Part shown: positions 38,083 to 55,880 of the stretch, piece after piece
How the letters are laid out: every line of letters starts with the position of its first letter
How positions within the stretch are numbered: position 1 is the first letter of the stretch
Assembly: GCA_027717655.1 (NCBI GenBank)
Contig: JALLOH010000003.1
Location: 6,160-70,159 of the forward strand
From: Acidobacteriia bacterium AH_259_A11_L15
GTDB lineage: Bacteria > Acidobacteriota > Terriglobia > Acidiferrales > 2-02-FULL-67-57
DNA: 64,000 nt
Direction of reading: 5' to 3'
Notes under the pieces: generated by a model
Told to the model about the DNA's origin: nothing
The model's database searches: none
Seen by the model: only the letters and a program-made list of their open reading frames with translations
Translations under genes and position numbers: made by a program

Positions 38083-38099
38083 GGTCACGCCAGCCAGGG

Positions 38100-38579: not shown

Positions 38580-38589
38580 GGTTCCTGAG

Positions 38590-39723: not shown

Positions 39724-39744
39724 GGCTCCTCCTTGATTAAGTTT

Positions 39745-39783: not shown

Positions 39784-39805
39784 TACTTTAGACGCTAGAG
39801 TTAGC

Positions 39806-40759
39806 ATGACAGGAGACGCACACAAGGTGAGCGAGACAAGAAGGGAGGACAAAGCCAGCCGGCTTCCAACTGGCGCGCTGACAGCAGAGCGCATACTGCC
39901 CGACCCCGTACTGGATGCCCACTGGGAGAGGATCATCATCCCTGAGGATCTCCGCCAAGGTTTACTCGGGCAAGCTGTGGTTTCCATGACCATAAGGCGT
40001 CGGCTCGGAACCGTCGCGTCTGCGCTGCATGGGATCATCTTGCTAACTGGTGCGCCTGGGACAGGGAAGACTACTTTGGCCCGCGGACTCGCCAACCGGG
40101 TGGCGCGTGCAAATCAGAGAGAATATGGCAAGATGGTTTACGCAGAGGTCGATCCTCACCGGCTTCCCAGTGAACTCCTCGGGCGCACACAGCAGGCAGT
40201 TACTCGCCTGCTTGGTGAAGAAATTCCGGCCTTCGCGTCAAATGGCAAGCCTGCAATCATACTTCTTGATGAGGTTGAGTCCTTAGCAACAAGCAGGACT
40301 AAGGCTTCTATGGAAACGAATCCCGTCGACGTACACCGTGCGACTGATGCAGTCCTTGCTGGAGTGGACCGTCTCGCTGAAGAGTTTCCTCACCTGCTGT
40401 TTCTGGCGACGACCAACTTTTCTGAGGCCGTAGACTATGCATTCATTTCGCGGGTGGACGCGGTTTTCGAACTACCGCTCCCTAGTCTCGAAGCTGGGGC
40501 AGTCATCATCGAGGATACACTTAAGATGTACGCGAACGAGTGGAAATCCATCGAGATGCTTGCGACCAAGGACGTGGGGCTGGCTGTAGCCGAGGTCGCC
40601 CAAGGATTAGATGGACGGCAGCTGCGGAAGCTTGTGGCGCATGCGCTGGCTATGAACCTGGACACTGCGAGCGACCCGGGAAAGCTGACAAGAGAATGTC
40701 TGCTCGAAGCAGCCAAGCGCGTGGTGGAGCTATCTCGGCAGGGGGGTCAGAGGAATTGA
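39806..40759 (+). CDS. cap6: CBASS TRIP13/Pch2-like AAA+ ATPase
   Basis: LHGIILLTGAPGTGKTTLARGLA, ILLDEVESLA, NPVDVHRATDAVL and AFISRVD. Confidence 0.9.
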   Translation: MTGDAHKVSETRREDKASRLPTGALTAERILPDPVLDAHWERIIIPEDLRQGLLGQAVVSMTIRRRLGTVASALHGIILLTGAPGTGKTTLARGLANRVARANQREYGKMVYAEVDPHRLPSELLGRTQQAVTRLLGEEIPAFASNGKPAIILLDEVESLATSRTKASMETNPVDVHRATDAVLAGVDRLAEEFPHLLFLATTNFSEAVDYAFISRVDAVFELPLPSLEAGAVIIEDTLKMYANEWKSIEMLATKDVGLAVAEVAQGLDGRQLRKLVAHALAMNLDTASDPGKLTRECLLEAAKRVVELSRQGGQRN

Positions 40760-41286
40760 GAGTCGAGCGGGTCATCGCGTGCAGTCCGGTTCGTACGCCC
40801 GAGGAGACTGCAAAACGAATTCTTGAGTTCGCGGGATCCTTCGGGGGCAGAGCCACAGTGGGCAACTTGCATCCAGCCGAAAATCTCCTGCGCCATATTG
40901 TCTTGCATCGGATCCCCCAAAACCGTCGGATCGAGGTCTTCTACGGAGAGCATTCATTACACCTGGCGTGTGCGTATGACTCTGAAGCACTAGACATAGA
41001 TGAGGATGATGAGGCTCTCCCAATTAGGCTGCCTCGGCCTTCAGAGGACGACCCATGCTGGACGCTGCATGTACCCTGCCCGGACGATCTACACCCTTGG
41101 GCCGATTCCGTGGTTAAAGCTAATGGGATTGGCACTTGGCTGGTTCTTGAGCCATGCACATCGAAGGCTGCCGCCGAGGGCACAGTGGAGGCCAAGCCCA
41201 AGGTGAAGAAAGAAGGACCACTCGTGGATCTTGAAGACCTAAAGGCTGCGGCACGGGCAAATCGAGACGAGGGCTACGACAAATGA
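40756..41286 (+). CDS. cap8: CBASS HORMA-like protein (Cap8-type)
   Basis: TTG start overlapping the cap6 stop. RVIACSPVRTPEET...CAYDSEAL...WTLHVPCPDD. Confidence 0.7.
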   Translation: MRVERVIACSPVRTPEETAKRILEFAGSFGGRATVGNLHPAENLLRHIVLHRIPQNRRIEVFYGEHSLHLACAYDSEALDIDEDDEALPIRLPRPSEDDPCWTLHVPCPDDLHPWADSVVKANGIGTWLVLEPCTSKAAAEGTVEAKPKVKKEGPLVDLEDLKAAARANRDEGYDK

Positions 41287-41792
41287 GCGTGCAAGTGCGT
41301 GTGCGTGTTGTGATTCGCACGCTGAGCGTGAATTACATTGCGGGAGAGCTGACCCGAGTCTTTCAGGCAGTAGCGATTGCCTTGGGGCTGGACCTCGATT
41401 ATCTCGAGTCCAACTGGAACGTCCTGCTGTCCGGCTTGCGCAAGTGGCTGGAAGAAAACACGCTACAAGCGGTGTACTTGGAGGTTTACAACGCACAAGG
41501 TTTCCTGGTAAGCCGCCTAGATTTGCAAATCCAATACGGCTCAGTGATAGCAGATGAGAGGAACTTCTATAGCGACTTGGAAAGTGTCAGGCTGGCCATG
41601 CGGAAAGTCGGGACTGTTCCGCAGGACTGTCGCTATTGCATCGTCGTTTCGCTGGCGACCGGTGCCTCCGATGTGCCTGGGTGGTCTAGGACGACGCTGC
41701 GGTCAACCGAGGGTATGCGTTCCCTGGCAATCGGCCCCCTGCTGGGGTCTCCATCGATTTCGAGCAAAATGAACATTTGGGTCAGGCGTTAG
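41283..41792 (+). CDS. cap7: CBASS HORMA-domain protein (Cap7-type)
   Basis: SVNYIA...GLRKWLE..LQAVYLEVY...VPGWS...RSTEGM, immediately before the CD-NTase. Confidence 0.8.
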   Translation: MSVQVRVRVVIRTLSVNYIAGELTRVFQAVAIALGLDLDYLESNWNVLLSGLRKWLEENTLQAVYLEVYNAQGFLVSRLDLQIQYGSVIADERNFYSDLESVRLAMRKVGTVPQDCRYCIVVSLATGASDVPGWSRTTLRSTEGMRSLAIGPLLGSPSISSKMNIWVRR

Positions 41793-41837
41793 CCAATACA
41801 GGCTGCCCATGCTTGAACAGAAAGTGAGCAAAAAGGG

Positions 41838-42707
41838 ATGACCGTCAGAGAGGCTTTTGAAAAGTTCAAATCGAACCTTGAAATCACCGAGGAAGAAGAG
41901 ACAACAGCAAGCGGGCGCCATAACCGCGTCCGAGAGCTTCTGGACGGGACTTTCGAACTGGAAAACCATTTCCTGACAGGTTCATACCGGCGGGAGACAA
42001 AAACGAAGCCACTCAAAGATGTAGACATTTTCTGTGTGCTCAAGGCTAACAACTCTACTCGGCGCGCTTACAGGGAAAACAACCCATCCAATGTCCTCTC
42101 CGCCTTCGAAAAGGTGCTCCGTGAAGAGTGTGGTGACAGGGTTTCTATCGGACGGAGATCCGTATCAATCGACTTCGGCCCGGAGGAACGTATTGTGAGC
42201 TTCGACGTGGTGCCAGCCTTCGAAAGATCAGGCAGAGGCTACGAGGTTCCAGACGGGAAATTGGGAATATGGATTGCGAGTGATCCCACCGAGCACGCCA
42301 GCCAAGCTACTGAGAAAAACAAGGAGCTTGACAACAAGTGGAAGCCACTGGTGAAGATGATCAAGGGTTGGAATCGGGCGAACGACAACCCGGTCAAACC
42401 CTCTTTCCTACTGGAGGTCATGGCGATGGAGCTAGTAGCTCCAGAATTCACGAATTACCCATGGGAACTGCAGACCTTTTTTGCCAGCGCAGCCGAACGC
42501 GTTACGGATTCTTGGCCCGATCCAGCTGGGTTGGGTCCAGATGTAAATGACACCATGTCTGACACTGAAAAAAGGCATGCGTCCTTAGCCCTGCAGAGGG
42601 CTGCAGGCGATGCGGCGGCTGCTCGACGGCTGGAAAATGCTGGTCAAGAGAACGATGCAAAACGTGCATGGAGGATGCTGCTAGGACTCCTGTTCCCGGT
42701 CTCCTAA
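41838..42707 (+). CDS. CD-NTase (cGAS/DncV-like cyclic oligonucleotide synthase)
   Basis: FLTGSYRRETKTKPLKDVDIF, SFDVVPAF, KPLVKMIKGWN, SFLLEVM, DPAGLGP and a C-terminal FPVS. Confidence 0.95.
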   Translation: MTVREAFEKFKSNLEITEEEETTASGRHNRVRELLDGTFELENHFLTGSYRRETKTKPLKDVDIFCVLKANNSTRRAYRENNPSNVLSAFEKVLREECGDRVSIGRRSVSIDFGPEERIVSFDVVPAFERSGRGYEVPDGKLGIWIASDPTEHASQATEKNKELDNKWKPLVKMIKGWNRANDNPVKPSFLLEVMAMELVAPEFTNYPWELQTFFASAAERVTDSWPDPAGLGPDVNDTMSDTEKRHASLALQRAAGDAAAARRLENAGQENDAKRAWRMLLGLLFPVS

Positions 42708-42780
42708 GCATTAGCTTGTACTGGCGAAATCAGCTTTTTAGGTAAAATTGCAAGTACCATCGAATACTGTTATCTGAGAT

Positions 42781-43566
42781 ATGCCAACCGATGGGAAAAA
42801 GAATCGAGTCGATCTCAGCAGTGTTTTCGCTGCTGTGGCTGAGCAGCTACGCGCTCAGTTCAATGCCATTCAGCACAGCGTGCAACATGGGCCCACCAAG
42901 GGATCAGCTGGAGAAGCTGTTTGGAGAGAGTGGTTAGAACGACATTTGCCTCGGCGTTACGCTGCCGGCACCGGCTTCGTGACCGACTCCAAGGGTTACC
43001 AAAGTAAACAGCAGGACATCGTGATCTACGACCGCCAATACTCGCCGCTGCTGTATGTCGAGCGAGATGCCTTATTCATTCCGGCTGAAAGTGTCTACGC
43101 CGTTGTCGAGGTAAAAACTTCGCTCACGCCAGATGAAATCGGGGATGCCAAGGCCAAGATAGCTTCTGTACGGACTCTTTATCGGGCCCCGTCGCAGAAG
43201 GTTTTACATGCCGCTGGGGTGGCGCGACCCAGGAAGCATGGCAGGATCTTTGGTTATGTTGTAGCGACAACGACAAGTTTATCTCGTCGCAACTTTCAAA
43301 AAAGGCTCGCTCGACACCTCCGGTCCGATCAAGCTAGCTTCATCGACGGGGGCTGCATTCTAAGCGTTGGAGCTTTTTCAACTCAGCTCGCTAGGGCCAA
43401 AGTCGATTTACGAACAGTTGAGTCAGCAGATCACGCTCTCTTCTGCTTCTTCGGTCTCCTCTTTGAAGATCTCAAAAGCCTAGCAACCGTGAGGCCATTC
43501 GATCTCGGGCACTACGCGACATCGGTTCGCTATCTCCACCGCAAGCGCCTAAAACGCCAGATCTGA
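42781..43566 (+). CDS. nucC: NucC-like cyclic-oligonucleotide-activated endonuclease
   Basis: HGPTKGSAGEAVWREWLERHLPRRY, SKQQDIVIYD and IPAESVYAVVEVK. Confidence 0.85.
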   Translation: MPTDGKKNRVDLSSVFAAVAEQLRAQFNAIQHSVQHGPTKGSAGEAVWREWLERHLPRRYAAGTGFVTDSKGYQSKQQDIVIYDRQYSPLLYVERDALFIPAESVYAVVEVKTSLTPDEIGDAKAKIASVRTLYRAPSQKVLHAAGVARPRKHGRIFGYVVATTTSLSRRNFQKRLARHLRSDQASFIDGGCILSVGAFSTQLARAKVDLRTVESADHALFCFFGLLFEDLKSLATVRPFDLGHYATSVRYLHRKRLKRQI

Positions 43567-43731
43567 CTGCTTGTCCCTCGAGTTTTTCGTATGCGCTGCC
43601 GGCAGAAGTTCTAGAGCGGGCTTAATTAGTCTGGTTGCAATGCAAGCAAGCGCCAGAAGAAGAACTCCTCCCTTCCGTGTTATCGTACACGAGAAACGCG
43701 GACCTAACCTTGTCTGGAGGACCTAGAGCCG

Positions 43732-44904
43732 ATGCGCGAACACACCACTTCATCCGAAATATCTGGCTTGTACAAGCTTTCGGTGCACGAGCGCCTGGAA
43801 ATTGTTGAGAGTTGCGGACAGCTTACCAACGAGGAATTAGAAACACTCTCAGCCACCAAGCCACTAACCGTAGAAGAGGCTAGTCAAATGCTCGAGAATG
43901 TCGCGGGCATTTTCCCACTTCCGCTGTCAATCGCCACACACTTTCGGGTTAATGGGAGAGATCGCCTAGTCCCTATGGTTACGGAGGAAAAGTCAATCGT
44001 CGCTGGAGCGTCGTACGCGGCCAAGCTAGCGCGCTCCGCTGGTGGATTTACTGCTTCCTGCACAGAGCCGCGTATGGTCGGCCAGGTGCAAATCATGAAT
44101 TGCCCGAGTCCTGATGAGGCCGAGCGCCGAGTTGTACGAGAAGCCCAAGGCATACTGGAAAAGGCAAACGCTCTTGGTGGGAGCATTGTTGGACTCGGGG
44201 GAGGAGGAAGAAGTCTCGAATGTAAGGTCCTCCGAACTGACCGCGGCTCGATGTTGATCGTGGATATTACTTTTGACACAAGGGATGCGATGGGCGCTCG
44301 TTTCGTGACGCGGGCATGCGAGAGTGTTGCTCCTTTTTTAGAAGAGATTACAGGAGGGAGAGCTCTAGCCAAGATTGTATCCAACTTTGCAGTTAAAAGA
44401 ATCTGTAAGGCAGGAGCAGTTTGGAGAAAAGACCTGCTCGGTGATGGAACAGTTGCAGGCATTCTCGACGTTTGCGAATTTGCCATTCACGACAAGTTTC
44501 GATGCGTAACCCACAACAAGGGCATCATGAACGGGATTGACGCTGTTGCAGTAGCGACGGGCAATGATTTCCGCGCGATTGAAGCTGCGGCTCATGCCTT
44601 TGCTTGCAGAGAGGGCAGGTATGTCCCGCTCGCTAAGTACTTTCAGGACGACGATGGGAATCTTCGAGGAGAGATCGAGATTCCGTTGCCTGTCGGTATC
44701 GTGGGCGGATCGACGACAAACCCAGTCGCGCGTATTTGTCGGAAAATCCTAGGCGTGAACAGTGTGACTGAGCTGGCCGAAATCATGGCGGCAGTAGGAT
44801 TAGCCCAGAACTTCGCGATATTGAGAGCCCTGGTACAGGAAGGCTTGGAAGGGTCCTACCGAAGGCTGTCAGGCGTGGGGGTTAGAACTTCACAAAAGAC
44901 ATAA
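43732..44904 (+). CDS. mvaA: Class II HMG-CoA reductase-like protein (catalytic His region altered)
   Basis: ENVAG, PMVTEEKS, DAMGA, THNKGIMNG, GNDFRA, GIVGG and GLAQNFA. Confidence 0.85.
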   Translation: MREHTTSSEISGLYKLSVHERLEIVESCGQLTNEELETLSATKPLTVEEASQMLENVAGIFPLPLSIATHFRVNGRDRLVPMVTEEKSIVAGASYAAKLARSAGGFTASCTEPRMVGQVQIMNCPSPDEAERRVVREAQGILEKANALGGSIVGLGGGGRSLECKVLRTDRGSMLIVDITFDTRDAMGARFVTRACESVAPFLEEITGGRALAKIVSNFAVKRICKAGAVWRKDLLGDGTVAGILDVCEFAIHDKFRCVTHNKGIMNGIDAVAVATGNDFRAIEAAAHAFACREGRYVPLAKYFQDDDGNLRGEIEIPLPVGIVGGSTTNPVARICRKILGVNSVTELAEIMAAVGLAQNFAILRALVQEGLEGSYRRLSGVGVRTSQKT

Positions 44905-44914
44905 GCAACTTACG

Positions 44915-45958
44915 TCAGGCGCTGGCTTCAAGCCTGACCCCTTTGACTCCCAGTTGGACTTCGCAAGGTGAATACCCCATGCCTCGTATTGTCTCTTCTA
45001 ATCTTTTCCTGTCCTCGTGAAAACAAATAACGAAACCTCCGCCCCCGGCTCCGGAGAGCTTGGCGCCGCCGCCGATTCTCCTGATGGCTTCTGTCAACTG
45101 GTCAATCTCTACTGTGGAAACACGAAGCTCCGCCAGGACTTGCTGCGCCTCGTTCATGAGACGCTTGATCGTCGCAGCGTCTTTTCGTCCGAGAGCTCCA
45201 AACATCTCGCCTGTCACGCGGCCTAGAATTTTCACTCTTACGACCCGGAAATCTTCTGGCAGGTCCCGAACAATTTGCAGTAGCTGTCCGGTTTTCTTTT
45301 CGCGTTTTCTAGTTTGAACAAGCAAAAAGTTACTAAGATTCCCTGGAATCGCGCCCTCTACCTGTCGAATAATATTCACCGGCGGTCGCTTCTCGAACCA
45401 AATCAATCCACCAAGGCAGCAAGTGGAATTGTCTCCCCCGGATGGCGTCCCGTGGTTGAACTGCTCTATCTCAAAGGCAATCCGATTGATTTCGTCGGAC
45501 GACAGCTCATAACAATAAGCAGTAGACAGCGCCTTGGCCATCGAAACAGCCAGCGCCGCAGAAGACCCCAGACCGGACCCAATCGGGATGTCTGAGCGTA
45601 TTTTAATGTTTGCACCCGTACGGACAGAAAGCTTTTCAAGAACAAGCGCACTTGCTACCAGAGGTAAGTTCATTGGCTTCTTCTTCATTAAATCGAAGAG
45701 AGGCCGAAAGTTCTTGGACTGCATACAAGATCTGTGGATCGCACAGGCCTGCTCTAGCGATGTTGCCCACTCTCGCGGCGTAGCCTCGAGTGTCTGATGC
45801 AGCTCACGACCCCAGATTCTCATCGATTCGGACCGCGTCGCCGATACGGTACATCGCAGCGAAATGGCCGCGATGATTGCGGGCTCGCCGTATACCACCG
45901 AATGTTCGCCAATCAAATGAACCTTGCCAGGAGCCGAGGCTACAACAGTTGCCATCAT
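44915..45958 (-). CDS. mvk: Mevalonate kinase (GHMP kinase)
   Basis: APGKVHLIGEHSVVYG, PIGSGLGSSAA, HGTPSGGDN and KLSGAGGGG. Confidence 0.85.
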   Translation of the reverse strand: MMATVVASAPGKVHLIGEHSVVYGEPAIIAAISLRCTVSATRSESMRIWGRELHQTLEATPREWATSLEQACAIHRSCMQSKNFRPLFDLMKKKPMNLPLVASALVLEKLSVRTGANIKIRSDIPIGSGLGSSAALAVSMAKALSTAYCYELSSDEINRIAFEIEQFNHGTPSGGDNSTCCLGGLIWFEKRPPVNIIRQVEGAIPGNLSNFLLVQTRKREKKTGQLLQIVRDLPEDFRVVRVKILGRVTGEMFGALGRKDAATIKRLMNEAQQVLAELRVSTVEIDQLTEAIRRIGGGAKLSGAGGGGFVICFHEDRKRLEETIRGMGYSPCEVQLGVKGVRLEASA

Positions 45959-46021
45959 CTCACTTTGTCACTGCATAGTGATATCAGCAGGCTTTTTGGC
46001 CGCTCACGGCAAGCAGCTTTC

Positions 46022-46537
46022 ATGGAAAAACAAGTTCGCCTGGTGGATGACGATCTGTTCAGACTCTACGTCAAAGACCAGGATGGTTCCTACTCCGTTC
46101 ACATTAACACCTGGGTTCGTGAGGACTGGAGAGAAATTGCTAGGGCACTCGGCAAGTCAGGCCAGCCAGTCAAAGACAAATCACGATGCTGTTGGCATTT
46201 TAGAGGTGGCAGCGACCCGAGCATTGAAATAGATGTCGGAGAGGGTGAATACGAGTTGTTCGGTGAACAAGGTCGACAATGGAGGACATACATGACTTTG
46301 GATAAATGGGGAATTAAGCCAGTTCAGCTGTCTGCTGAAGTGCGCTCCCTGGTTCGGGAATACAAAACCATCACAAAAAGATTGAGGCATTACGACTTCG
46401 TTCGCTCAAAAAATGTGGTGGGACGAATCGAGCAAAATCTGCCTCTAATGCGAAACAAAATGGAGCAGCTGACACAAGCCTGCATAGATAATTACTACGA
46501 GCCTTTCACCGGAATCAGACCGAGACGTTTGACTTGA
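46022..46537 (+). CDS. Hypothetical protein
   Basis: Probable start MEKQVR, which avoids overlap with mvk. Confidence 0.5.
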   Translation: MEKQVRLVDDDLFRLYVKDQDGSYSVHINTWVREDWREIARALGKSGQPVKDKSRCCWHFRGGSDPSIEIDVGEGEYELFGEQGRQWRTYMTLDKWGIKPVQLSAEVRSLVREYKTITKRLRHYDFVRSKNVVGRIEQNLPLMRNKMEQLTQACIDNYYEPFTGIRPRRLT

Positions 46538-48194
46538 TAGAAAGTAGCCGGCGAATTGTCTCCTCCGCTCTGTCCTGTGCTTTTCCTTTCTTACTCAGTA
46601 GGGCTTCGTTGATGGGGTCCTGTATTTTTCCTTTTTGGAACAACTTCGCTGCTAGGGATGGTATGAGTCCCTTTTCGTTCTTCGTGAATTCCATCATCTG
46701 TTTTTTTATGTTCCCGGAAAGCACATTCTCTAGAATGGCATTACTGAGCATGACGCCGTGGACCCGCTGATCCAGGCTTCTGAGCCTAGCCGATAGTAGT
46801 GCCCACTTGGGGGAGGTTATGGTGAGAATATATCTCCAGTCGAGACCAAAAGGTATCTTCTTGGCGTTGCCACTAAAATCACCAGCGCAGATGGTAGCAT
46901 TTTCTGTTTCTAGAAACCTTTTCAGGATGAATACGGCAAAATCTACAAAGAGTGCTCTTGAGGCGGGAGTTCGTAGCTTTCTGTAATGACCCTGAAACAT
47001 CTCTGCTGTTGGGTGAAGATCAAACTGGTAATAGACGTGTGTGTTGTTTGAACAGCCATGTAGAAATCCGTGCTCGAAATAGGACAGGCGGAGCGGGTAT
47101 CGACTTTTAGCATCAAGACCGCTTAATTGGCAGTCTCTAATAGTGTTCTTGGTTTCTTGGTCCGAGAGTTTTTTGTGGCGGCGCAAAAAGTCGGAAAAGA
47201 AAGCGTTGACGTTTTTGCCGGCATACTCGAGTGGTAGCAGAAGCCCTGGGCTTGTAGAAAAGATATAGAGCGGGGACGATTCGGAAGTGAACAAACTTTT
47301 CGCTTCGTCGTAATAACCTTCTGGATCGAGGACGTTTATTCTCGCGGCAAGAACGTTCCACAATTTTGTGGAAGTTATCTTTGCTAATTGTAGAATTTCT
47401 CTTTCCTGCGGAGTGAGCTCTTCCAATGGGCGATTTTCTAGGCAACGACGCAGGAGGAGAATAGGCAAGGACGCCGGCCATCCGTGGAGTACAAGTCCAA
47501 CTTCATCCTCTTCTCCGGGATCGAGGATCTTGGCTCGGACCAACTCTCTCAACGGACCGGTTTTCCATGCGGGCTGCTTTCGCACCGCTTCAGCAAGAAC
47601 CGACTTCGGAATCCGTACTCTCGGAGAGTCGCGTAATTCCATGAACGCCTCGGAAAGATCGACGGCGCGCTCTGGCGGGAATTTGGTTGTTCGTTGTAAC
47701 TCTTTGAGCTTACGGTTCAATACAACCGCAAATCTGTCGGACCAGCTATCGAGCCAGGGGCGGTTTTCGTCAATCCAGTGAACCGTTTGCGCGAAAAACT
47801 GCCGAACGCTGTCTGCGTCGCCCTTATCGACAGCGAACCGTTCGCGGAAATACGACAGGAAAACATCCAGGGTAGCCATGCAGCGCTCGACAGAGGTCCG
47901 ATCTTCGCCAGGTCGCGTCGTTTCGAGGGGATAGCCAGCCGCGATCAGAGCCTCGGCGCGCATGCCGAGGGCTTTTCCAATTTGTTCCACCCACTTACGT
48001 CGCGGTCTAGCCCTTCGTCTCTTCTTCTCATGCACCAGACGCCACAAATACGAGTAGTCGACCTTAGCCTTGCGAGAAAGCGGTTTTAGGGAAATTCCAG
48101 TCTCTTTTATCGCAGCATTCAACCATGTGCTGAATGTGACCATTGGGAGGTACTCTTCGGAGACCATTGTAGAAGGAGAGTGTATGTTTGTCAA
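46515..48194 (-). CDS. XRE-family HTH fused to a large unknown domain (putative repressor/sensor)
   Basis: TFSTWL...GISLKPLSRKAKVDYSYLWRL...IGKALG...AAGY. Divergent from the operon ending in the recombinase. Confidence 0.7.
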   Translation of the reverse strand: MTNIHSPSTMVSEEYLPMVTFSTWLNAAIKETGISLKPLSRKAKVDYSYLWRLVHEKKRRRARPRRKWVEQIGKALGMRAEALIAAGYPLETTRPGEDRTSVERCMATLDVFLSYFRERFAVDKGDADSVRQFFAQTVHWIDENRPWLDSWSDRFAVVLNRKLKELQRTTKFPPERAVDLSEAFMELRDSPRVRIPKSVLAEAVRKQPAWKTGPLRELVRAKILDPGEEDEVGLVLHGWPASLPILLLRRCLENRPLEELTPQEREILQLAKITSTKLWNVLAARINVLDPEGYYDEAKSLFTSESSPLYIFSTSPGLLLPLEYAGKNVNAFFSDFLRRHKKLSDQETKNTIRDCQLSGLDAKSRYPLRLSYFEHGFLHGCSNNTHVYYQFDLHPTAEMFQGHYRKLRTPASRALFVDFAVFILKRFLETENATICAGDFSGNAKKIPFGLDWRYILTITSPKWALLSARLRSLDQRVHGVMLSNAILENVLSGNIKKQMMEFTKNEKGLIPSLAAKLFQKGKIQDPINEALLSKKGKAQDRAEETIRRLLSIKSNVSV

Positions 48195-48246
48195 ACCTGG
48201 GAAGGAGGCCCGCAGGCAAGAAATGACAATATAGGCGACAGACTTG

Positions 48247-48263
48247 ACAATTGTGCTACAATT
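48247..48263 (+). promoter_or_regulatory. Perfect palindrome CAATTGT-GCT-ACAATTG containing an extended -10 (TGcTACAAT)
   Basis: Read directly from the sequence; lies between the divergent repressor and the operon. Confidence 0.6.
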
Positions 48264-48283
48264 GAGATGCGCGGGAACTGGCC

Positions 48284-48667
48284 ATGGGAGAGCAGGCGAC
48301 CGGGGACCTAGTTCGGGAAGAGCTGGCCAAGCGGCTGGTTCACACTCTGCACCGGATATGCCTGGGGACAGAGGGGGTTAAGTACCACAAAGGAAAGCGC
48401 TTGGAGGAAGTGACAGTGCTGCTTCCGCTAGGTGTCAACGAAAAACTAGCGATCTTGAGCAATATCAGCGTCGTAAATCGGGCCCTAGACCATCCCACGG
48501 TATTTGAGCGACTTCCGGAGTTTTTCCCTTCCTCGGAATCGAAAGGCCAGTTGGTGCTGCCGTTCAAAGACCCTCCTCTCGAGGTATCAGCCAAAATGCC
48601 CGACGGTGGCGAAACGGGCCGTACACGCGGTCGTGGCAGCGTGGGGGTGCGCGTGGATGCGGCCTAG
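48284..48667 (+). CDS. Hypothetical protein (first gene of the operon)
   Basis: ATG just downstream of the promoter; contains QLVLPF. Confidence 0.55.
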   Translation: MGEQATGDLVREELAKRLVHTLHRICLGTEGVKYHKGKRLEEVTVLLPLGVNEKLAILSNISVVNRALDHPTVFERLPEFFPSSESKGQLVLPFKDPPLEVSAKMPDGGETGRTRGRGSVGVRVDAA

Positions 48668-48950
48668 AATCCCACTTCGGCGTTCGCACTTACGGACTTG
48701 TTCAAAATCAAAATATGCGCAGGCCGCCAGAGCTTTGATGGGGACCTACCCCTGGTCATCTCGATGGCTGGCCGGGGAAGCGATGGCCGCCGCGCAACAC
48801 GTCATCCGCTGCGCCGACTCAGGCCCGGACGGGGTTGTCCGCGAGGCTTACCAGGAACTTTGCAATTGGCTGCGTCGTGACCACACCCTCGCCAAGCGGC
48901 GGGAGCGCGAAACTGCATATCAGCACTTCTTCGGTAGGGGTGCAGGATGA
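48657..48950 (+). CDS. Hypothetical protein
   Basis: ATG at 48657 overlaps the previous gene; its stop overlaps the radical SAM ATG. Confidence 0.45.
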   Translation: MRPRIPLRRSHLRTCSKSKYAQAARALMGTYPWSSRWLAGEAMAAAQHVIRCADSGPDGVVREAYQELCNWLRRDHTLAKRRERETAYQHFFGRGAG

Positions 48951-49945
48951 AGGTCGTGGAGCGAGAAGGTCCGTTCATCAAGCGCTTCTCAGGACCGGAC
49001 GAAGAAAGCGCAATCATCTGCTTCAAGTTTTGGCAAGGGGTCATAGCGTCTGGCTGTGCCGGTAAATGCGACTATTGCTGGCTCCAGACGCAATCGCCTT
49101 ATAGCACCGGCAGATACGAACTAACAGGCACACTGTTCAGCAACCTCCCCGAACGGTTACCCGCCGAGCTCGCCAAGTGGCTGACGTTTCCCGTGCCGCG
49201 CGCGCTTATTTTTGGCGAAAACCAAGATGGCCTTGGGTTCGAGCACCCTTATAAGCGGATGTTCGGGGTAACGCCACTTGAGATCGCAATACCTATGTTC
49301 TCCGACCCCTCGGTCAATCGGGTTGGACACAAGCTAATCGTCCTTAGCAAATTTGATTCGGTTGACTATGCCCGTACCTTTCCGCCGAACCCCAACGTCA
49401 TCTTTTCCTGGTCTGTGAGTTCGGAATGGGTAAGTAGCCATCACGAAAAGGGCGTGGCACCTCTCGAGCGTCGTCTGACTTGTGCCGAACTCATGAAAAG
49501 CGACGGATCGCCGGTTCGCTTCCGGTTAGATCCCATGATTCCTCATGAAGGTTGGCAGCAAGATTATGCCCAGACCATTGCACGGATCAACGCAATCAAG
49601 CCTGAGATGGTGACGATCGGGGCATTACGCGCCACCAACAAGAATAAATTGAAGCAGGCGGCCAAGCGCAACAAGCGAGACGGATCCATCTTCAACATTC
49701 TTACTGAAAAGGACCCCTCGGATTTCAAATGGCGCATACCACTCAACCAACAGATTGACTTGTTTTCGTTCGCCATCATGCAGGTGGACAGTCATGTGGT
49801 TCCCGCGCTCTGCAAGGAAGACGAGACTATATGGCGTGCCGTCGATAAATGCCTCAAGGCCAAAGGACATCCAGGACTCACCTTCCGAGGATGTCACTGC
49901 GTGATTGCGGGTTCTAGGAAAGACGTTTTGGTGCAATTGAGTTAG
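48947..49945 (+). CDS. Spore photoproduct lyase (SplB)-like radical SAM protein
   Basis: GCAGKCDYCWLQ (CxxxCxxC), LSKFD, FSWSV, HEKGVAPLERRL, RLDPMI, TIGALR and ALCKE. Confidence 0.8.
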   Translation: MKVVEREGPFIKRFSGPDEESAIICFKFWQGVIASGCAGKCDYCWLQTQSPYSTGRYELTGTLFSNLPERLPAELAKWLTFPVPRALIFGENQDGLGFEHPYKRMFGVTPLEIAIPMFSDPSVNRVGHKLIVLSKFDSVDYARTFPPNPNVIFSWSVSSEWVSSHHEKGVAPLERRLTCAELMKSDGSPVRFRLDPMIPHEGWQQDYAQTIARINAIKPEMVTIGALRATNKNKLKQAAKRNKRDGSIFNILTEKDPSDFKWRIPLNQQIDLFSFAIMQVDSHVVPALCKEDETIWRAVDKCLKAKGHPGLTFRGCHCVIAGSRKDVLVQLS

Positions 49946-50056
49946 GGGGCGGAAACGTGTGGGATGGCCTCAGAGAAACTGGCTTGACCTTCTTAACATG
50001 GCCCTCACGGGCTGACCGAGGCCACTTGGACGAGCCTGAAGAACAAAGGAGGCACT

Positions 50057-50551
50057 ATGCGCTATCTACCAGGGGATGTTCCTGACGCGTACCGTGACTT
50101 TGATGGTCCGGAAAACTTTGCGAACGCAGCTCCTCCATCGCACCGAACACCTCTCATGTTGCTGCTAGCGGTTTCCTTGCTCCTAGCGCTAGCTGTGGGT
50201 GGGTTCGCATACCTACGGAAGACACCTCCACAAACAGATGCACAAGCGGCGGCCGTAGGGAGCGGGGCCACCAAAGCACAAGCCGGCGACGTTTTTGGCG
50301 AACCTCGCGCAGAGTACCTCTCGTTACGTACCCAGCACGATGCTGGGAACCACGCGAAGCTTGTTCACCGCCTACTTGATCGTTCGATCCGTGAACTCAA
50401 TGAAGCCGAGAGCGAATTGGACAAGCTGCGCTCCGTCTACGCCGAGAGTGTGGTTGACAAAGCGACTCAGAAGGTCAGGGCAGCTCGGCAGAACCTAGAG
50501 ACGGCGCATGGCGAAATCAAGACTATCGAGGCTCTCATAATCAGAAAATGA
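50057..50551 (+). CDS. Single-TM coiled-coil protein
   Basis: AAGGAGG RBS; LMLLLAVSLLLALAVGGFAYL followed by heptads. Confidence 0.7.
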   Translation: MRYLPGDVPDAYRDFDGPENFANAAPPSHRTPLMLLLAVSLLLALAVGGFAYLRKTPPQTDAQAAAVGSGATKAQAGDVFGEPRAEYLSLRTQHDAGNHAKLVHRLLDRSIRELNEAESELDKLRSVYAESVVDKATQKVRAARQNLETAHGEIKTIEALIIRK

Positions 50552-50593
50552 AGTTTTCGACGAGGCGGTCAGGAACAGACAAAGGAGGAAGCG

Positions 50594-50989
50594 ATGCAAA
50601 CTGCGACCATGAACCACGTCGTTAAGTCGAGGGGTGCTTTGCCAATTCCCAGAAACCCGAGGAGCTTTCTGGCCTTGACGGAAGCACGATCCCCAGCTCG
50701 TTTGGCAGCTGTTGGCTTGGCACTGCCCGATTCTGCTAGTCATCTGACCGGGCTGCCCATGCCGGCGATGAGCACTGCCACTGTGTCTGGAGAGAGGCTT
50801 CCGATCTTGGCCGGGATGCCAACCCAGGTCACGGTCAAGGCGCTCAAGCGGATGCTCGAACTGGACACAGCGGACCGATTGATGCGCGTAACCGACAAAG
50901 GAACGGCAGAGCTGCTCGGCGACACCGACGTGGTCGACTTGATGGAACGTTGCAACCTTGAGGTCGTAAGACCAAACGTTGACTCCTAG
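50594..50989 (+). CDS. Putative ubiquitin-like (beta-grasp) protein with a low-complexity N-terminal extension
   Basis: AAGGAGG RBS. The C-terminal ~70 aa follow a Ubl pattern (TVSG-ERLPI / VTVKALKRML / RLMRV / ELLGDTDVVDL / NLEVV-tail). Confidence 0.5.
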   Translation: MQTATMNHVVKSRGALPIPRNPRSFLALTEARSPARLAAVGLALPDSASHLTGLPMPAMSTATVSGERLPILAGMPTQVTVKALKRMLELDTADRLMRVTDKGTAELLGDTDVVDLMERCNLEVVRPNVDS

Positions 50990-51024
50990 CCTGCTTTCTG
51001 GCCGCCTCGCCCTCAGGAGTCAAG

Positions 51025-51675
51025 ATGGATCAAGAGCTTTTGAAGAACATTGCTCTGACAGCGATCGCCGTTTTCTTTTTTCTGCTCAGTGCTTCTCTCC
51101 TATACCGCTGGGCTGTGGAGGAGTACTGGCGCTCTCGAGAGAGAGCTTTCGAGAAGAGGAAACGACGGATGGCTGAAGAACGCATGCGCAAAATCCGTGA
51201 AAAAGAGGCACAGGAAATGCAAGCGGAGCAGGAACTCGCAGCACAAGGCCGAGAGCTCATTGCCAAGGTTTCCGGTCCCTCCCTCCGGAAAGCAAAGGCT
51301 GTGTTCGGCGAGTTACGTGCGAACCGGGTAGGCCTAGCCAAGTATTCGTATATTTGCTTCAAGACGTTGCAATATGTAGCTGACTGCTGCGATGGCTTCC
51401 CTTCTCCGTATCAGCTAGCGGACCAGGACCCAGACCGGAGGAGGACGCAACTGCAGGTGCTCTCTACAGCTTCTGCGGGATTGGAAGTTTTGAACGCGTC
51501 ACATAACGACATCGTGTTCGACGCGAGTCTCATCACGTGGAAAGTCAATTTAGAGAAAGTGCGCTACGAGATTTGCCCCAGCTGCCCGGTGGTCGAGAAT
51601 CCTGGGAAATACACCGACGCATGTCCTGTCATGATGATCACAAGTGTGGATAAGCAAGATGGCGAGGAAGAATAA
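51025..51675 (+). CDS. Single-TM coiled-coil protein with a Cys-rich C-terminus
   Basis: TM helix, charged coiled coil, CCDG, CPSCP and ACP. Confidence 0.7.
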   Translation: MDQELLKNIALTAIAVFFFLLSASLLYRWAVEEYWRSRERAFEKRKRRMAEERMRKIREKEAQEMQAEQELAAQGRELIAKVSGPSLRKAKAVFGELRANRVGLAKYSYICFKTLQYVADCCDGFPSPYQLADQDPDRRRTQLQVLSTASAGLEVLNASHNDIVFDASLITWKVNLEKVRYEICPSCPVVENPGKYTDACPVMMITSVDKQDGEEE

Positions 51676-52489
51676 TAGGAATTCCAGCTTCTGCTACGAA
51701 GAATGGTTCAGCGCTCAGCAATCCCTGATCGGGATTGAGGGCTCACAGGCGCTGCGTCAAATGAGCATTCTTATTGCTGGTGCCGGCGGACTCGGTTACA
51801 ACTTAGCGGTATTTGCGGCTCGTTCAGGCGTTGAGGCCATATACCAGTGTGATTCGCAGGTGGTTGAAGTCGATGATAACCTCAACCGAATCTTCGCCAA
51901 CACTAGGCATCTGGGTAAAACGAAGCTCTCGGTAGTTGAGGAGCTGCTGCATTGCTTTGATCGAGCATCAGTTGATAAGAATTTCAATTACACGCCGTTA
52001 GCTTTTCCGGTCGAACATCCAAGAGTTCGCGTTTACTTAAAGCAGGCCGATTTCTTGATGTCTTCTCCAAACTCAATCGATTCTAGATTATGGCTTCTGC
52101 GGTATGCTCGGGACAATAAAAAGCTTTTATTTAACGTCGGCTTCTCATGTGCACCTGGAAAACACATGAGCGGCGAGGTGTCGATTTTCCGGCCGAGTAG
52201 ACGAGATCTTGCCTGTCCTGCGTGTATTTCCCTCAAAGCACAAGACGACTCTACGCGCAGTCCTCTGTTTTATCCGCCTTTGGCCGTGCTTGCTGCTTTC
52301 GCCATACATCTTGCGATAGCAGAAGTCACCAATTTTGATTGTCTTGGGGAGGACCGACCAAACTACTTTCTGTACGACGGCTTCAGCCATTTGCTCGCGG
52401 GTTTTCGGCTGGAACCTGATCCTGACTGCGAAGTTTGCCAAACAAAATCTCCAATGAGGGAGAAGAAGAGATTTGAGCGCGCCGAATAA
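51659..52489 (+). CDS. ThiF/MoeB/E1-family adenylyltransferase
   Basis: IAGAGGLG, DNLNRIF, GKTK, CPAC and PDCEVC Zn sites. Confidence 0.85.
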   Translation: MARKNNRNSSFCYEEWFSAQQSLIGIEGSQALRQMSILIAGAGGLGYNLAVFAARSGVEAIYQCDSQVVEVDDNLNRIFANTRHLGKTKLSVVEELLHCFDRASVDKNFNYTPLAFPVEHPRVRVYLKQADFLMSSPNSIDSRLWLLRYARDNKKLLFNVGFSCAPGKHMSGEVSIFRPSRRDLACPACISLKAQDDSTRSPLFYPPLAVLAAFAIHLAIAEVTNFDCLGEDRPNYFLYDGFSHLLAGFRLEPDPDCEVCQTKSPMREKKRFERAE

Positions 52490-52494
52490 AAGCC

Positions 52495-52815
52495 GTGGAA
52501 TACTTCGGCATCGCAGTATTGGCTCTCTTGATATTTATATTGGTCTCTCTGGTGGGTATCCCGGCCAGCCTCTTGCCTTTTGTATATTCCCCGACCTTGA
52601 GTTTTCGTCACGTGATTATCAGCCTTGCGGCATTCATGTGTTCCCTGGCAATCGGACTTGCTCCTCGAGAGCCAATGCTACTGATCCCAGTCGGTGTTTT
52701 TTTCCTTATGTTCGGACAGAAAATCATCACCGATCCTTTCTCGAACGGGATCTTCGGAGCAGCGCTTTTATTCGGCATTATCTTTGCCGGGCTAGTTTGG
52801 TTGTTCGGAATTTGA
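52495..52815 (+). CDS. Small multi-pass membrane protein
   Basis: Almost entirely hydrophobic (about 4 helices). Confidence 0.6.
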   Translation: MEYFGIAVLALLIFILVSLVGIPASLLPFVYSPTLSFRHVIISLAAFMCSLAIGLAPREPMLLIPVGVFFLMFGQKIITDPFSNGIFGAALLFGIIFAGLVWLFGI

Positions 52816-52838
52816 TCAGCGACTAAGGGGATGCTGGC

Positions 52839-53093
52839 ATGAGCTTTCGCGACAACGACAGAGCTCTGGCAGCTAGGAAGGATGACATCCTTTTTAGGGT
52901 GTGCGTAGTGGCCTGGGTAGTGCTCAGCCTTTACTCCATAGGTAGCGGGTACATTACCACCCTCAGATGGGCCGTAACTTTAACAGTTATTGGGAGCGTA
53001 TCCCTCACAATCGGATTAGTACTCCACTCCCCTGAAGCAAAGTGGCTTTCGCGGGCAATTCCGTTCATTGCTTTGCTGGCATACAGCGTTTGA
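52839..53093 (+). CDS. Small membrane protein
   Basis: About 3 hydrophobic segments; AAGGGG RBS. Confidence 0.55.
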   Translation: MSFRDNDRALAARKDDILFRVCVVAWVVLSLYSIGSGYITTLRWAVTLTVIGSVSLTIGLVLHSPEAKWLSRAIPFIALLAYSV

Positions 53094-53168
53094 AGGAGGA
53101 CTCGAAAGACTGCGGTTTCTAAACTGAACTAGCTTCAAAGAACCCATTTGGGTGCCCAAGGGCGTAGA

Positions 53169-53342
53169 ATGAAGCTCCAAACGGTAGAGGATGCGGTTTT
53201 CCGCAAACGAATTTCTGATCCGGAAAGACGGGAGAAAAACAAGGGGAAAACCATATTTTGTCGTGAGGTCATCGAAATGGTGGCGCAAGCTTTGGTGGAA
53301 ATGCTAAAAGAGGAAAAAGAAACCCGATTCAAAAAGGATTGA
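53169..53342 (+). CDS. Small basic protein overlapping the recombinase start (candidate directionality factor)
   Basis: Its stop overlaps the recombinase TTG. Function is inferred from position only. Confidence 0.4.
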   Translation: MKLQTVEDAVFRKRISDPERREKNKGKTIFCREVIEMVAQALVEMLKEEKETRFKKD

Positions 53343-55420
53343 GTTCCGTGGAAAGAATCAGTGCGCTATATCAACGGGTTACGGCAGAAGAATCGTTCCG
53401 CCGTCAGATGAGTTTGCCGGCCCAAAAGACCGAAGCCGAAGAGCTGGCCAGGAGGCACGGCTGGCAGTTCAAACACTATACGGAACCACGCCATTGCAAA
53501 GCGAGCGAGTGGGATCGTCCTGCGCTTAACGAGCTGATACGAGACATTGAGGCCGATCTTATAAGTCGTGTGGTTGTCCGACATGAAGACCGCCTATGGC
53601 GTGACCTTGGGATCCAGCAGCGTCTTTTGGAAATATTTCGAAAACACAATGTGGAGTTTTGGGCATTTCGTGGACCACTCGACTACCTAAGTGCTCATGG
53701 GCGACTGGTTTTGAACGTGACGGGCAGCGCAGCTCAGTTCGAACGCGAGATTACAGGTGAGCGAATCCGTTCGATGAAGCGGTCGAAGGCTATGAAGGGA
53801 CAACCTGCTGGTGGCCCTGCGCCTTTTGGGTACACATCCCAGGCGCGACTGGAAAGAGAACTAGTCGCGAAGGATGGTCTTGATCAGGACGCCGCATACA
53901 AGAGGGCTTGTGAACTGATTCCTGTCGCTAAGTCTTGGGTAGTGGATGAGGCAGAGGCCGAGAGCGTGCGAATAATCTTCGACCATTATGTCAAGATGCG
54001 ATGGGGTTGCCGCAAGATCGCCAAGTATCTCAACGAAATAGGGCATCGTCGCCGGTCCGGCCTTCCGTGGCACCCGGACAAGGTCCGCAGGATAATCAAC
54101 GATCCGTGCGTTGCTGGTTTTACCAGCTTCGATACAGAAGCCTATGACTCCCACGTGACATCCAAAGCGCCCAAGTCTAAGCAGACCCTTTTCAAGGCTG
54201 AGCACAAGCCGATCATCGAATCCGACCAATGGTTTGCAGCTCAGCGGCTCAAAGCAGAAAACACAACCAGTAACCGCACAAGGGTAACTGCGCGTCAAGT
54301 CTATGCGCTCTCGGGCATCCTGGTTTGTGCAAGATGCGGGTCGCGCATGAAGGGTAAAAGCTCAGGCAGAAGTGGGTACTCCTATTACGTGTGCGCTAGG
54401 CGGGCAGCGTTCGGGCAAGAAGGGTGTGACGCTCCTCTTCTAAACTCACGCATGGTTGAGGACTGTGTGTGGAATTACCTTCAGGAATATCTTTCGAAGC
54501 CTGAAGGCGTCGTGGAATTCGTCAAAAAGGTCAACAAGAAGCTAAAGGAAAAGGTGCCTGGAATCGACGACAGGATCAAGCAGACCGAGAGGGAGATTCA
54601 AGAAATCGATGCCAAGCTTGCCAAATATTATGCCCGCTATGAGAGGGCCAAGAACGATTTGGAGGCAGGTGCAGCCTGGGACCGGATAGTTGAGCTGAAA
54701 GATCTAAAAATTCGAAACCAGCGCACTCTTGCCGAGTTGCGGAAGCAGGAAAGTGCTTTGAAGCTTGAGGAGATGGACGTTGAGAAGGCTCAGCACTACA
54801 TCAAGTCTCTTTACGTGTTTATGCGGGACCATCCGTTCGAGCGACGCGCTCTTTGTTTGGCACTCAAGCAGAACCACGGTTTTACGGTCACGGTTCTGTC
54901 CAGGAGCAAGCTTGTTGCCTCTATGGAGTTTGATAGGCTGACGGAAATCGGACTGGGAAAAGATAGGACAGACACTGGTAGGGACTCATCAGACGCGTCT
55001 TTGGCCTATGTGTCTGGGATGGGGCAAAACTATGCTGGCCAAGCGCGTGCCCACTATCCTGCCGCCGCTCACCCTGGACGAGGCCATCCAGACCACCAAG
55101 GTCCACAGTGTCACCGGGGTGCTCGAAGACAGCCGTGGGCTCATCCCCACGCGCCCTTTCCGCGCCCCCCACCACACCATCTCCGACGCGGGCTTGATTG
55201 GCGGCGGGACGATTCCGCGGCCGGGCGAGGTCTCGCTGGCGCACAACGGGGTGCTGTTCCTGGACGAGCTGCCCGAGTTCCAGCGCAGCGCCCTGGAGGT
55301 GCTGCGGCAACCCCTCGAAGACGGCCTGGTCACCATCTCCCGGGCCATCACCAGCTTGACCTTCCCCGCCCGCTTCACGCTGGCGGCGGCCATGAACCCC
55401 TGCCCCTGCGGGTACTTTAA
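53339..55420 (+). CDS. Large serine-family recombinase (resolvase + recombinase + Zn ribbon + coiled coil); ORF runs through the att site
   Basis: [49 protein letters not shown] and YYVC...GC. Confidence 0.92.
54992..55049. other. att junction of the island in comM
   Basis: Imperfect inverted arms ACGCG..TTGGCC (54993-55006) and GGCCAA..CGCGT (55037-55048) around the GC-shift point. Confidence 0.7.
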
Positions 55421-55880
55421 CGACCCCACCCGCGAGTGCCGCTGCACGCCCACGCAGATCCAGCGCTACGTGCAGAAAATCTCCGGCCCCTTGCTCGATC
55501 GCATCGATATCCACATCGACGTTCCCGCCGTCCGCTACAAGGAGCTCCGCGGGGCCGCCCCCCGGGAAGGGTCGGCGGAGTTGCGCGCCCGCGTGATGCG
55601 CGCCCGCCAGCGGCAACTGGAGCGCTTCCGCGGCGAGAAGATGTACTCCAACGCCCAGATGCCTTCCCGGCTCATCCGCAAGGTCTGCGAAATCGACGCC
55701 GACTCCGAGAAGCTGCTGGAGACCGCCATCACCCGCCTGGGGCTGAGCGCCCGGGCGCACGACCGCATCCTGAAGGTGGCGCGCACCATCGCCGACCTGG
55801 GCGACTCCGAGCGCATCGCCGCCAAGCACCTCTCCGAGGCCGTCCAGTACCGCACCCTGGACCGTACCTACTGGACCTAG
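55021..55880 (+). pseudogene. comM: 3' part of comM/yifB (Mg-chelatase-like AAA+), interrupted at Walker A
   Basis: [50 protein letters not shown] and [18 protein letters not shown]. The N-terminal ~220 aa of a typical ComM are absent. Confidence 0.95.

Follow-up and report, generated by a model that had tools for sequence, protein, structure and literature searches.

A genomic island of at least 60 kb in the metagenome-assembled genome (MAG) of Acidobacteriia bacterium AH_259_A11_L15 encodes an integrase that probably represents a rare clade of large serine recombinases (LSRs) in which a threonine, Thr15, attacks DNA in place of serine, and whose gene is cut in two by the integration of its own element. 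The analysis concerns a 64,000-nucleotide stretch of this genome (hereafter the window; positions 6160-70159 of contig C333), which comes from a fragmented bin of 2.63 Mb and 939 contigs. In the window, the right-hand part of the island, with the recombinase open reading frame (ORF) at its end, meets the host gene comM; the island is inserted in the Walker-A codons of this gene. Serine recombinases take both their definition and their name from the nucleophilic Ser of the Y-x-R-V-S motif. Coordinates of all features are collected in Table 1.

The island recombinase and its active site

The recombinase ORF, for which a GTG at 53348 is an alternative start that would move the residue numbering by 3, encodes a protein with matches above the cut-offs to three Pfam families: Resolvase (PF00239, residues 9-155, E = 1.1e-21), Recombinase (PF07508, residues 205-308, E = 5e-18) and Zn_ribbon_recom (PF13408, residues 324-381, E = 3.2e-13). 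This is the domain order of LSRs. The only NCBIfam matches, to XisF, CcrA, CcrB and CcrC, were below threshold. An AlphaFold2 (AF2) model of residues 1-556, with a mean predicted local distance difference test score (pLDDT) of 85, has a strand-loop-helix around Thr15, a long E helix (119-152), the recombinase domain and the ribbon, after which come helices at 388-405, 409-435 and 440-474 with pLDDT mostly >85; a coiled-coil motif in the Zn-ribbon domain, as in LSRs, is predicted, and residues 532-556 (pLDDT <50) form a predicted disordered linker. Foldseek comparison of the model returned full-length LSR-DNA complexes of Bxb1, PhiC31 and others (9dxh, 9iu2, 9tep, 4kis; E values of 3e-18 to 6e-12). 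By fold and domains the protein is a large serine recombinase, yet it lacks the name-giving Ser.

In phmmer alignments to PDB chains, the counterpart of Thr15 is the Ser of Y-T-R-V-S in TP901-1 integrase (3bvp, E = 1.7e-11) and that of Y-E-R-L-S in TnpX (2mhc, E = 1.1e-9). Together with the reading of the ORF, these alignments confirmed the initial annotation, which had recognised a large 'serine' recombinase with Thr (ACG) at the nucleophile position. The substitution is shared by the clade to which the protein belongs, and the surrounding active site is largely conserved. In an alignment of 23 Thr sequences (A2), Y11, R13, T15, Q29, R60, D84, R85 and R88 show no variation, and E49 almost none; by alignment these residues map to resolvase Y6, R8, S10, Q19, R45, D67, R68, R71 and D36, respectively, and the other catalytic residues of LSRs (resolvase Y6, R8, D36, R45, D67, R68 and R71) are present. 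R85 and R88 are retained in 39/39 rows of a further alignment (A1). Thr15 most likely serves as the nucleophile.

Other parts of the active site have been remodelled. The second motif, EPRHCKAS in the window, has the clade consensus E-[PE]-x-x-[VI]-[GS]-[GA]-[DE], in its commonest form E-x-x-x-[VI]-G-G-D, and its alteration throughout the clade bears out the suggestion of the initial annotation that this motif favoured a diverged subfamily. In clade members, the Q14 position is occupied by Ser or another residue and the S39 position by Val, Ile or Cys, and the R-P motif is preceded by a loop that is longer by 1-3 residues. With Ser or other residues at the Q14 position, the active site of the clade is not simply a canonical one with an added methyl group. 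For Tn3 resolvase, one study describes Y6, R8, S10, D36, R68 and R71 as crucial, S39A as active, and D36 as 'sometimes glutamate' within the family (PMC2794168).

Threonine as a clade character

A word-indexed search yielded 39 homologues at E <= 1e-10, 38 of which were aligned (P0029, without a Resolvase domain, was omitted). Y-x-R-[VL]-T was present in 24 of them, which comprise every match of 31-62% identity that has an N-terminus; three others have no N-terminus, and the remaining 11, all distant (<=30% identity), carry R-V-S. A profile built from A2 was then compared with 1.84 billion cluster representatives; at E <= 0.001 it matched 115,549 proteins, and the analysis draws on the best 150 of these. 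The 182 proteins examined overall comprise 60 with Thr, 104 with Ser (among them P0033, whose apparent Thr is an alignment artefact), 8 that are N-truncated and 10 without a catalytic domain. Among the matches listed, the Thr proteins rank on top, and every protein below ~260 bits has Ser.

Species genomes gave a similar division. Relatives are encoded at 56 loci, 47 of which have a high-scoring segment pair (HSP) across the motif. Thr occurs in 14/14 loci of 33-42% identity (L001-L014), which come from Polyangium, Sorangium, Kofleriaceae, a Myxococcales MAG, planctomycete MAGs and Tepidisphaeraceae, and Ser in 32 of the other 33 loci (<=29% identity), the last being ambiguous. The Thr codons of the 14 loci include all four ACN triplets (ACC 5, ACG 5, ACA 3 and ACT 1), and pairwise ratios of nonsynonymous to synonymous substitution (dN/dS) are 0.05-0.19 over up to 500 codons, where dS is unsaturated. 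In addition, the IMG/VR collection of 2.9 million viral contigs contains one clade member (L081) among 80 of 131 loci.

A tree of 98 rows was inferred by IQ-TREE quick search (LG+G4). It included the window protein, the 52 Thr proteins of >=450 aa and, of the Ser proteins that reach this length, the first 45 by id; 8 short Thr rows and all other Ser rows were excluded. One clade with an SH-like approximate likelihood-ratio (SH-aLRT) support of 100 contains all 53 Thr rows and 2 Ser rows. Of the latter, P0048 (R-L-S-R-D-S-E) is nested as sister to a Thr row (support 98), and P0087 occupies a long basal branch. An approximately unbiased (AU) test, for a group named after the tree had been seen, rejected a single all-Thr clade (p = 0.016), indicating that Ser and Thr have interchanged at position 15 within the clade, as expected if both can act as nucleophile. 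These counts, the tree and the codon usage strongly support Thr at position 15 as the natural character of a deep, monophyletic and rare clade rather than an accident. The option favoured by the initial annotation, a diverged natural Thr subfamily, is therefore upheld: the count of RVT versus RVS that it had proposed gave Thr in 24/24 close matches with an N-terminus, and not Ser in all of them.

Splitting of the recombinase gene and its attachment site in comM

The native 3' end of the recombinase gene lies outside the window, and the gene is cut in two by the insertion of the island. Its remainder is found on contig C531, beside the 5' half of comM. Joining the window arm in silico, at the core end, to the island arm at attL, with both junctions read directly, extended the frame by 137 codons to a stop and gave a 700-aa ORF. 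A single HSP spans the joint (residue 563/564) when the joined ORF is aligned with 39 full-length homologues, of which P0050 matches best (38% identity, residues 5-689 versus 13-718, E = 2e-155), and the tail aligned with the C-termini of contiguous homologues, for example with residues 614-718 of 751 in P0050 (E = 2e-22). With attP inside the ORF, integration leaves 563 codons at attR, in the window, and 137 at attL, on C531. The close homologues of the window recombinase are 561 to 847 aa long. The initial annotation had described the rest of the enzyme as intact and the ORF as lying beside a clean att junction in comM; the DRLWR motif, the recombinase domain, the Zn ribbon and the junction itself all stand, but the last 137 codons of the gene have been removed by integration, and the ORF does not end at the junction but runs on, out of the comM frame, to 55420.

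The tail has a confidently predicted fold (pLDDT 90.6). It starts with a conserved Cys/His motif, W...H-x-C-x-C-G-C-G...H-H...G-I-P, and at its end is a winged helix with weak similarity to the N-domains of MerR and CarH, to RacA, to the RdfS excisionase and to Pukovnik Xis (Foldseek E values of 0.036-0.13, root-mean-square deviation of ~2 Å over 50-58 residues). Pfam detected no family at E <= 0.01 in the tail alone, and the same region of P0015 matched HTH_17 (2.5e-8). A hidden Markov model of the tail detected it in 38/60 Thr proteins and 0/103 canonical Ser proteins; P0048, the nested Ser protein, has it too. The 22 tail-less Thr proteins are either fragments or 561-847 aa long, most of the latter belonging to the subclade of the window protein, which is the pattern expected from truncation by integration.

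In the integrated island the tail frame has a single start codon, an ATG that follows AGGAGG at a distance of 9 nt and opens a 65-aa winged-helix ORF (L058:1115-1312, minus strand, on C531), possibly a small Xis-like protein. Translation of a separate tail helix-turn-helix (HTH) protein from a conserved internal Met was considered and rejected, the position being Leu in 15/37 rows and Met in 2/37.

At the island boundary, at ~55000, the GC content climbs from ~0.52 to 0.68. The 5' half of comM on C531 covers positions 3-233 of TIGR00368 and the 3' half on C333 positions 220-499, and the two halves together make a full-length match to this family. In the direction of comM, attL passes from host G-P-P-G-S-G-K-T into the island, and attR from the island into K-T-M-L-A-K-R. 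An uninterrupted attB is present in the comM gene of a genome of the same genus (G001); comM is uninterrupted in 15/20 relatives searched (including the unpublished genome G008) and split at the same place in 0. In addition, contigs from 3 public runs (3 studies) match the window from 55022 rightward at ~96-97% and continue leftward into 5' comM without the island, and are empty sites in close relatives. The intact comM of G001 and the empty-site contigs support recent mobility of the island.

The left dyad arm in the window has its partner, ATAAGCCAAA, at the other island end on C531. In the reconstructed attP sites the dyads are centred on the shared core, and the arms of the Sorangium site described below are 14 bp long and perfect. 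The sequences are best explained by an attP of ~50 bp, with dyad arms and a central core, that would lie in the disordered linker ahead of the tail.

The view of the initial annotation that this is a comM-targeting subfamily holds for part of the clade, namely the window, P0003, L001, L002, L004 and, at a distance, L013; the rest, 11/15 clade loci, have no comM in their often short flanks. Several observations concern the target gene itself. The element supplies an ATG at 55008 in frame with the 3' part of comM, and its P arm mimics the P-loop (55008-55034), so that the 3' fragment could be translated as an N-truncated ComM with GWGKT replacing GPPGSGKT. In P0003 (847 aa, from a metagenome, 50% identity), the recombinase ORF continues in frame into the 3' part of comM, giving a predicted recombinase-ComM fusion with Mg_chelatase domains. 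Another relative, G011, has comM in two pieces (C278:20968-21930 and C20:3665-4213, the second with a TAG) that meet near profile position 318, which could reflect a contig break or a different insertion elsewhere in comM.

The split arrangement in other genomes

The split-gene arrangement is conserved in the window and three other genomes, as read from their sequences, with recombinases that are just 38-42% identical to that of the window. In the complete chromosome of Sorangium sp. So ce388, the tail (L076) directly follows the 5' half of comM, and the recombinase (L004) is found on the same strand ~127 kb further downstream, immediately ahead of the 3' half; the two junctions share GGCAGCGG, and the frame is unbroken over the joint. 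The element of a Kofleriaceae MAG has the opposite orientation with respect to comM, with the tail beside the 3' half (L077) and the recombinase ~20 kb downstream beside the 5' half (L001); its shared core, CGTCTTGCCC, is the reverse complement of the window core, and the joint is again in frame. Polyangium fumosum has the same inverted arrangement as the Kofleriaceae MAG over two contigs, with the joint in frame; a single contig bearing both junctions was looked for in this genome and not found.

The intact form of the gene is represented by L081 (positions 6001-8080 of this 25.8 kb IMG/VR contig), a contiguous gene with Thr (ACG) and the tail that is 70% identical to the enzyme of Sorangium So ce388. 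Its linker DNA contains the Sorangium P arm (54/67 bases identical) followed by the P' arm, and the sequence thus presents an intact attP, or attP-like sequence, within a recombinase ORF.

Further traces of such elements were noticed. Contig C44 of P. fumosum carries extra tail-like fragments (L078/L079), one with two in-frame TGA stops, which look like decayed remnants of earlier insertions, and a second Thr recombinase of this species (L009) is located at the end of another scaffold. On a planctomycete contig (L013), a comM 5' fragment (7572-7709) is broken at the same G-P-P-G-S-G position, its flanking bases, GACCGTGTCA, being the same as in the window attL; a full-length Thr-clade recombinase (233-2210) is encoded 5.4 kb from this 5' junction and points toward it.

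Cargo and neighbouring features of the island

The island comprises at least 61 kb on C333 and up to 6.4 kb on C531, with a gap between them. Apart from the proteins in Table 1, the Pfam scan of 35 ORFs, for which 25 of 39 families were listed, found SMODS, ThiF, Peptidase_M78 with HTH_3, HMG-CoA reductase, GHMP kinases and a spore-photoproduct-lyase domain. No phage structural or conjugation genes were among these 25 of 39 families, and no resistance genes were seen among the scanned island ORFs. The cargo is mostly made up of defence-like and metabolic genes; the mevalonate-type genes (HMG-CoA reductase and GHMP kinases) are unusual for a mobile island.

Immediately upstream of the recombinase, a 64-aa ORF without a Pfam family (53148-53342) overlaps the recombinase start with its stop (ATTGA); no counterpart was found beside other clade members, and 0/5 of the ORFs upstream of the recombinase, considered as possible partner genes, were matched in loci L001-L056. 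Sediment-run contigs (X2) match the recombinase stretch 53664-53845 at 90-95% likeness. Elements related to the island may occur in this sediment habitat, the match being very short.

Table 1. Features of the island, its recombinase gene and the comM junctions. Positions are those of the window unless a contig or locus is named.
Feature	Position	Strand	Basis or remark
Right-hand part of the integrated island, at least 55 kb	1..55027		GC ~0.50-0.60 versus 0.60-0.68 in the host; Pfam on 35 + 10 ORFs
GMC oxidoreductase	3930-5597	-	Pfam
CHAT-TPR protein	12054-15737	-	Pfam
DNA methyltransferase	18852-20540	+	Pfam
HerA-like DUF87 protein	23930-25957	-	Pfam
RNase_H_2 protein	28945-30387	+	Pfam
DNA methyltransferase	31981-33678	-	Pfam
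SMC/AAA_15 ATPase	34296-36539	-	Pfam
Recombinase ORF	53339..55420	+	TTG start
5' part of the split large Ser/Thr-type recombinase gene, 563 codons	53339..55027	+	Pfam, AF2, Foldseek, one-HSP alignment of the joined ORF
Contents of the 5' part: catalytic domain, recombinase domain, Zn ribbon with coiled coil, extra helical region, disordered linker	53339..55027	+	
ACG codon, Thr15, at the position of the nucleophilic Ser	53381..53383	+	Counterpart of the Ser in TP901-1 integrase and TnpX (phmmer); invariant in A2
Altered second motif EPRHCKAS, residues 49-56	53483..53506	+	Glu49 at the resolvase Asp36 position, Cys53 at the Ser39 position
DRLWR motif, residues 84-88 (Asp84, Arg85, Arg88)	53588..53602	+	Resolvase D67/R68/R71; invariant in A2
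Left dyad arm of attP, TTTGGCCTAT	55000..55009	+	10-bp inverted repeat, 1 mismatch, centred 4 nt before the shared-core end
comM 3' fragment (YifB-type Mg-chelatase-like AAA ATPase), starting within Walker A	55008..55880	+	TIGR00368 221-499, 2.5e-114; Pfam Mg_chelatase, Mg_chelatase_C
attR core GGGCAA (identical in attL and attR), then R-AC-Y	55022..55031	+	Comparison of attL, attR and intact attB (G001); empty-site contigs match from 55022
Out-of-frame read-through of the recombinase ORF into comM DNA, ~130 codons, outside the native protein	55028..55420	+	
Recombinase tail, last 137 codons	L058:1118-1528 (contig C531)	-	Beside the 5' half of comM

Comparison with known recombinases

The window clade shares with LSRs such as TP901-1, PhiC31, Bxb1 and the Listeria A118-type LI integrase the domain order, the Y-x-R and D-R-x-x-R residues, integration into a host gene and, as it appears from the reconstructed sites, short att sites with dyad arms. 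It differs from them in the Thr at the nucleophile position, the remodelled D-x-G-x-S-G motif, the changed Q14 position, the location of attP in the ORF, and an extra tail of ~135 aa (a Cys/His part and a MerR/Xis-like winged HTH) that is absent in 103/103 canonical neighbours. The Y-E-R-L-S-R-D-D of TnpX from Tn4451 resembles the clade motif Y-x-R-L-T-R-[DE]-E, and its catalytic domain is the PDB match at 1.1e-9 given above; however, TnpX, a large serine resolvase/transposase, has Ser and no tail domain, and circularisation there generates a promoter instead of completing a gene. The AbaR-type resistance islands of Acinetobacter also interrupt comM, but move by Tn7-like transposition, whereas the window island has a serine-type integrase, and no resistance genes were seen among its scanned ORFs.

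The closest likeness in gene arrangement is to the SSV-type ('suicidal', type I) integrases of archaea, in which attP likewise lies within the integrase ORF and the N and C parts come to stand at the two element ends; disruption of the gene has been proposed as a control of directionality (PMC7253208). Unlike these enzymes, the window integrase has a serine-recombinase fold, bacterial hosts, comM as target, and a catalytic and DNA-binding core that is not split. Pfam and Foldseek found serine-recombinase domains alone, and no tyrosine-recombinase fold as in SSV-type integrases. The Int protein of myxophage Mx8 is a tyrosine recombinase as well, whose hosts are myxobacteria, as for several Thr-clade members, and whose target and fold are unrelated to those of the window integrase. 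In Mx8, whose integrase is IntP, attP lies within int; upon integration, int acquires a different 3' end and the properties of the enzyme change (PMC6070905). No report of a serine integrase with attP inside its own gene was found in the full-text literature, subscription journals and supplements being outside the search.

Alternative explanations

Two explanations that treat the observations as accidents can be set aside with near certainty. The first was the second option of the initial annotation, a single TCG>ACG mutation, or a sequencing error, that inactivated an ordinary serine integrase and froze the island. Only one base change would be needed, and no run with the recombinase DNA, from which base 53381 could be read, was found among the indexed runs; however, every close relative has Thr, encoded by four synonymous codons, and the nearest Ser-type proteins are <=30% identical, so that homologue counts rule this option out. 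It is just as hard to credit that the junction between island and comM is an assembly chimera of a metagenome bin. The fragmentation of the MAG and the GC jump at the junction would fit a chimera, but the complementary junction on C531 joins the other half of comM to the matching gene tail, and the same architecture occurs in the complete Sorangium chromosome and two other genomes, which refutes it in practice.

The identity of the nucleophile allows for another reading, that the enzyme is active and uses a residue other than Thr15, for example Ser19 of R-V-T-x-E-E-S or the Ser of the second motif. Ser19 is nearly invariant in A2 and lies four residues past Thr15. Six members (P0027, P0053, P0061, P0067, P0068 and P0073) nevertheless have A, P, D, G or V in its place, which excludes Ser19 as the nucleophile; moreover, position 15 is always Thr or Ser, and Thr15 falls exactly on the residue proven to be the nucleophile in TP901-1 integrase and TnpX. 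An alternative nucleophile is accordingly very improbable. The more serious, though still unlikely, rival is that the Thr-clade proteins are dead or very weak DNA-binding relatives, such as regulators or partners, the islands being moved by another enzyme. In favour of this, the clade departs from the canonical sequence in the S39-type motif and at the Q14 position, and the islands are only partly assembled, which leaves room for an unseen recombinase. On the other side, the other catalytic residues are invariant and purifying selection is strong; att sites abut or sit inside the recombinase gene in four genomes; the reconstructed attP dyad has the form typical of large serine recombinases and appears to be centred on the crossover; independent comM insertions in several lineages each carry a Thr enzyme; and C333 and C531 contain no tyrosine recombinase, no second serine recombinase and no other site-specific recombinase.

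Several points nevertheless weigh against an active Thr integrase with a self-splitting gene. The clade is known from sequences and models, and Q14 mutants of Tn3 resolvase, a position at which the clade differs, are strongly impaired (PMC2794168, Table 2). The tree comes from a quick LG+G4 search in which the trait column was kept (1 of 586), and the group submitted to the AU test was chosen post hoc. At the DNA level, the attP of the window island was reconstructed from the attL and attR arms rather than seen as a circle, and the crossover dinucleotide within the core is ambiguous, GGGC-AA and AC both fitting the data. Database searches add that there is no clade member among the best 12 of 388 matches in 50,697 phage records or the best 12 of 434 matches in 72,556 plasmid records (<=29% identity in both), and that no indexed public run contains at least half of the words of window positions 54400-55600, the best share being 0.15. 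Finally, no paper on a Thr-form serine recombinase was found in the full-text literature, subscription journals and supplements, which may contain LSR catalogues with such variants, being outside the search.

Proposed mechanism and significance

Taken together, the evidence makes it likely that the island integrase belongs to a rare Thr clade of LSRs, with Thr15 as the attacking residue and a gene that is split by its own integration. In the proposed mechanism, the excised circle alone would encode and express the full 700-aa enzyme. Thr15, activated by Arg13, Arg85 and Arg88, with the retained Asp also helping in positioning, would attack the scissile phosphate and form a 5'-phosphothreonyl-DNA link at attP and attB, after which subunit rotation and religation would proceed as in other large serine recombinases. 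After integration, there would remain a 563-aa core with a meaningless extension and, at the other end, a tail ORF with no start of its own save that of the 65-aa HTH ORF.

From the precedents of SSV-type integrases and Mx8, the split would be expected to stabilise the integrated state or to alter the preference of the enzyme, and by analogy it may act as a switch of activity or direction. We regard it as possible, with some doubt, that the 700-aa tailed form is proficient in integration and that the integrated tail-less core has different, reduced or reversed activity, Thr chemistry thus being combined with a direction that is set by the state of the gene and needs no separate directionality factor. 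If the island excises poorly, the split gene is a likelier cause than Thr.

For annotation, these results mean that clade ORFs adjoining comM are truncated genes with junk C-termini, and that a small ORF at the far end of the element is the remainder of the gene. If the proposed role of Thr15 is true, a natural and selected Thr clade would indicate that the chemistry of serine recombinases tolerates a secondary alcohol, and would provide a set of co-varying active-site changes for study. Large serine integrases are widely used genome-engineering tools, and a branch that combines another nucleophile and an additional DNA-binding tail with an on/off switch built into the gene, which is whole in the circle only, could offer new control of direction. 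In addition, the design in which attP lies within the integrase gene, which among tyrosine recombinases had been described as confined to archaea, Mx8 being a bacterial case, is now found in the serine fold, which would be an instance of convergent evolution.

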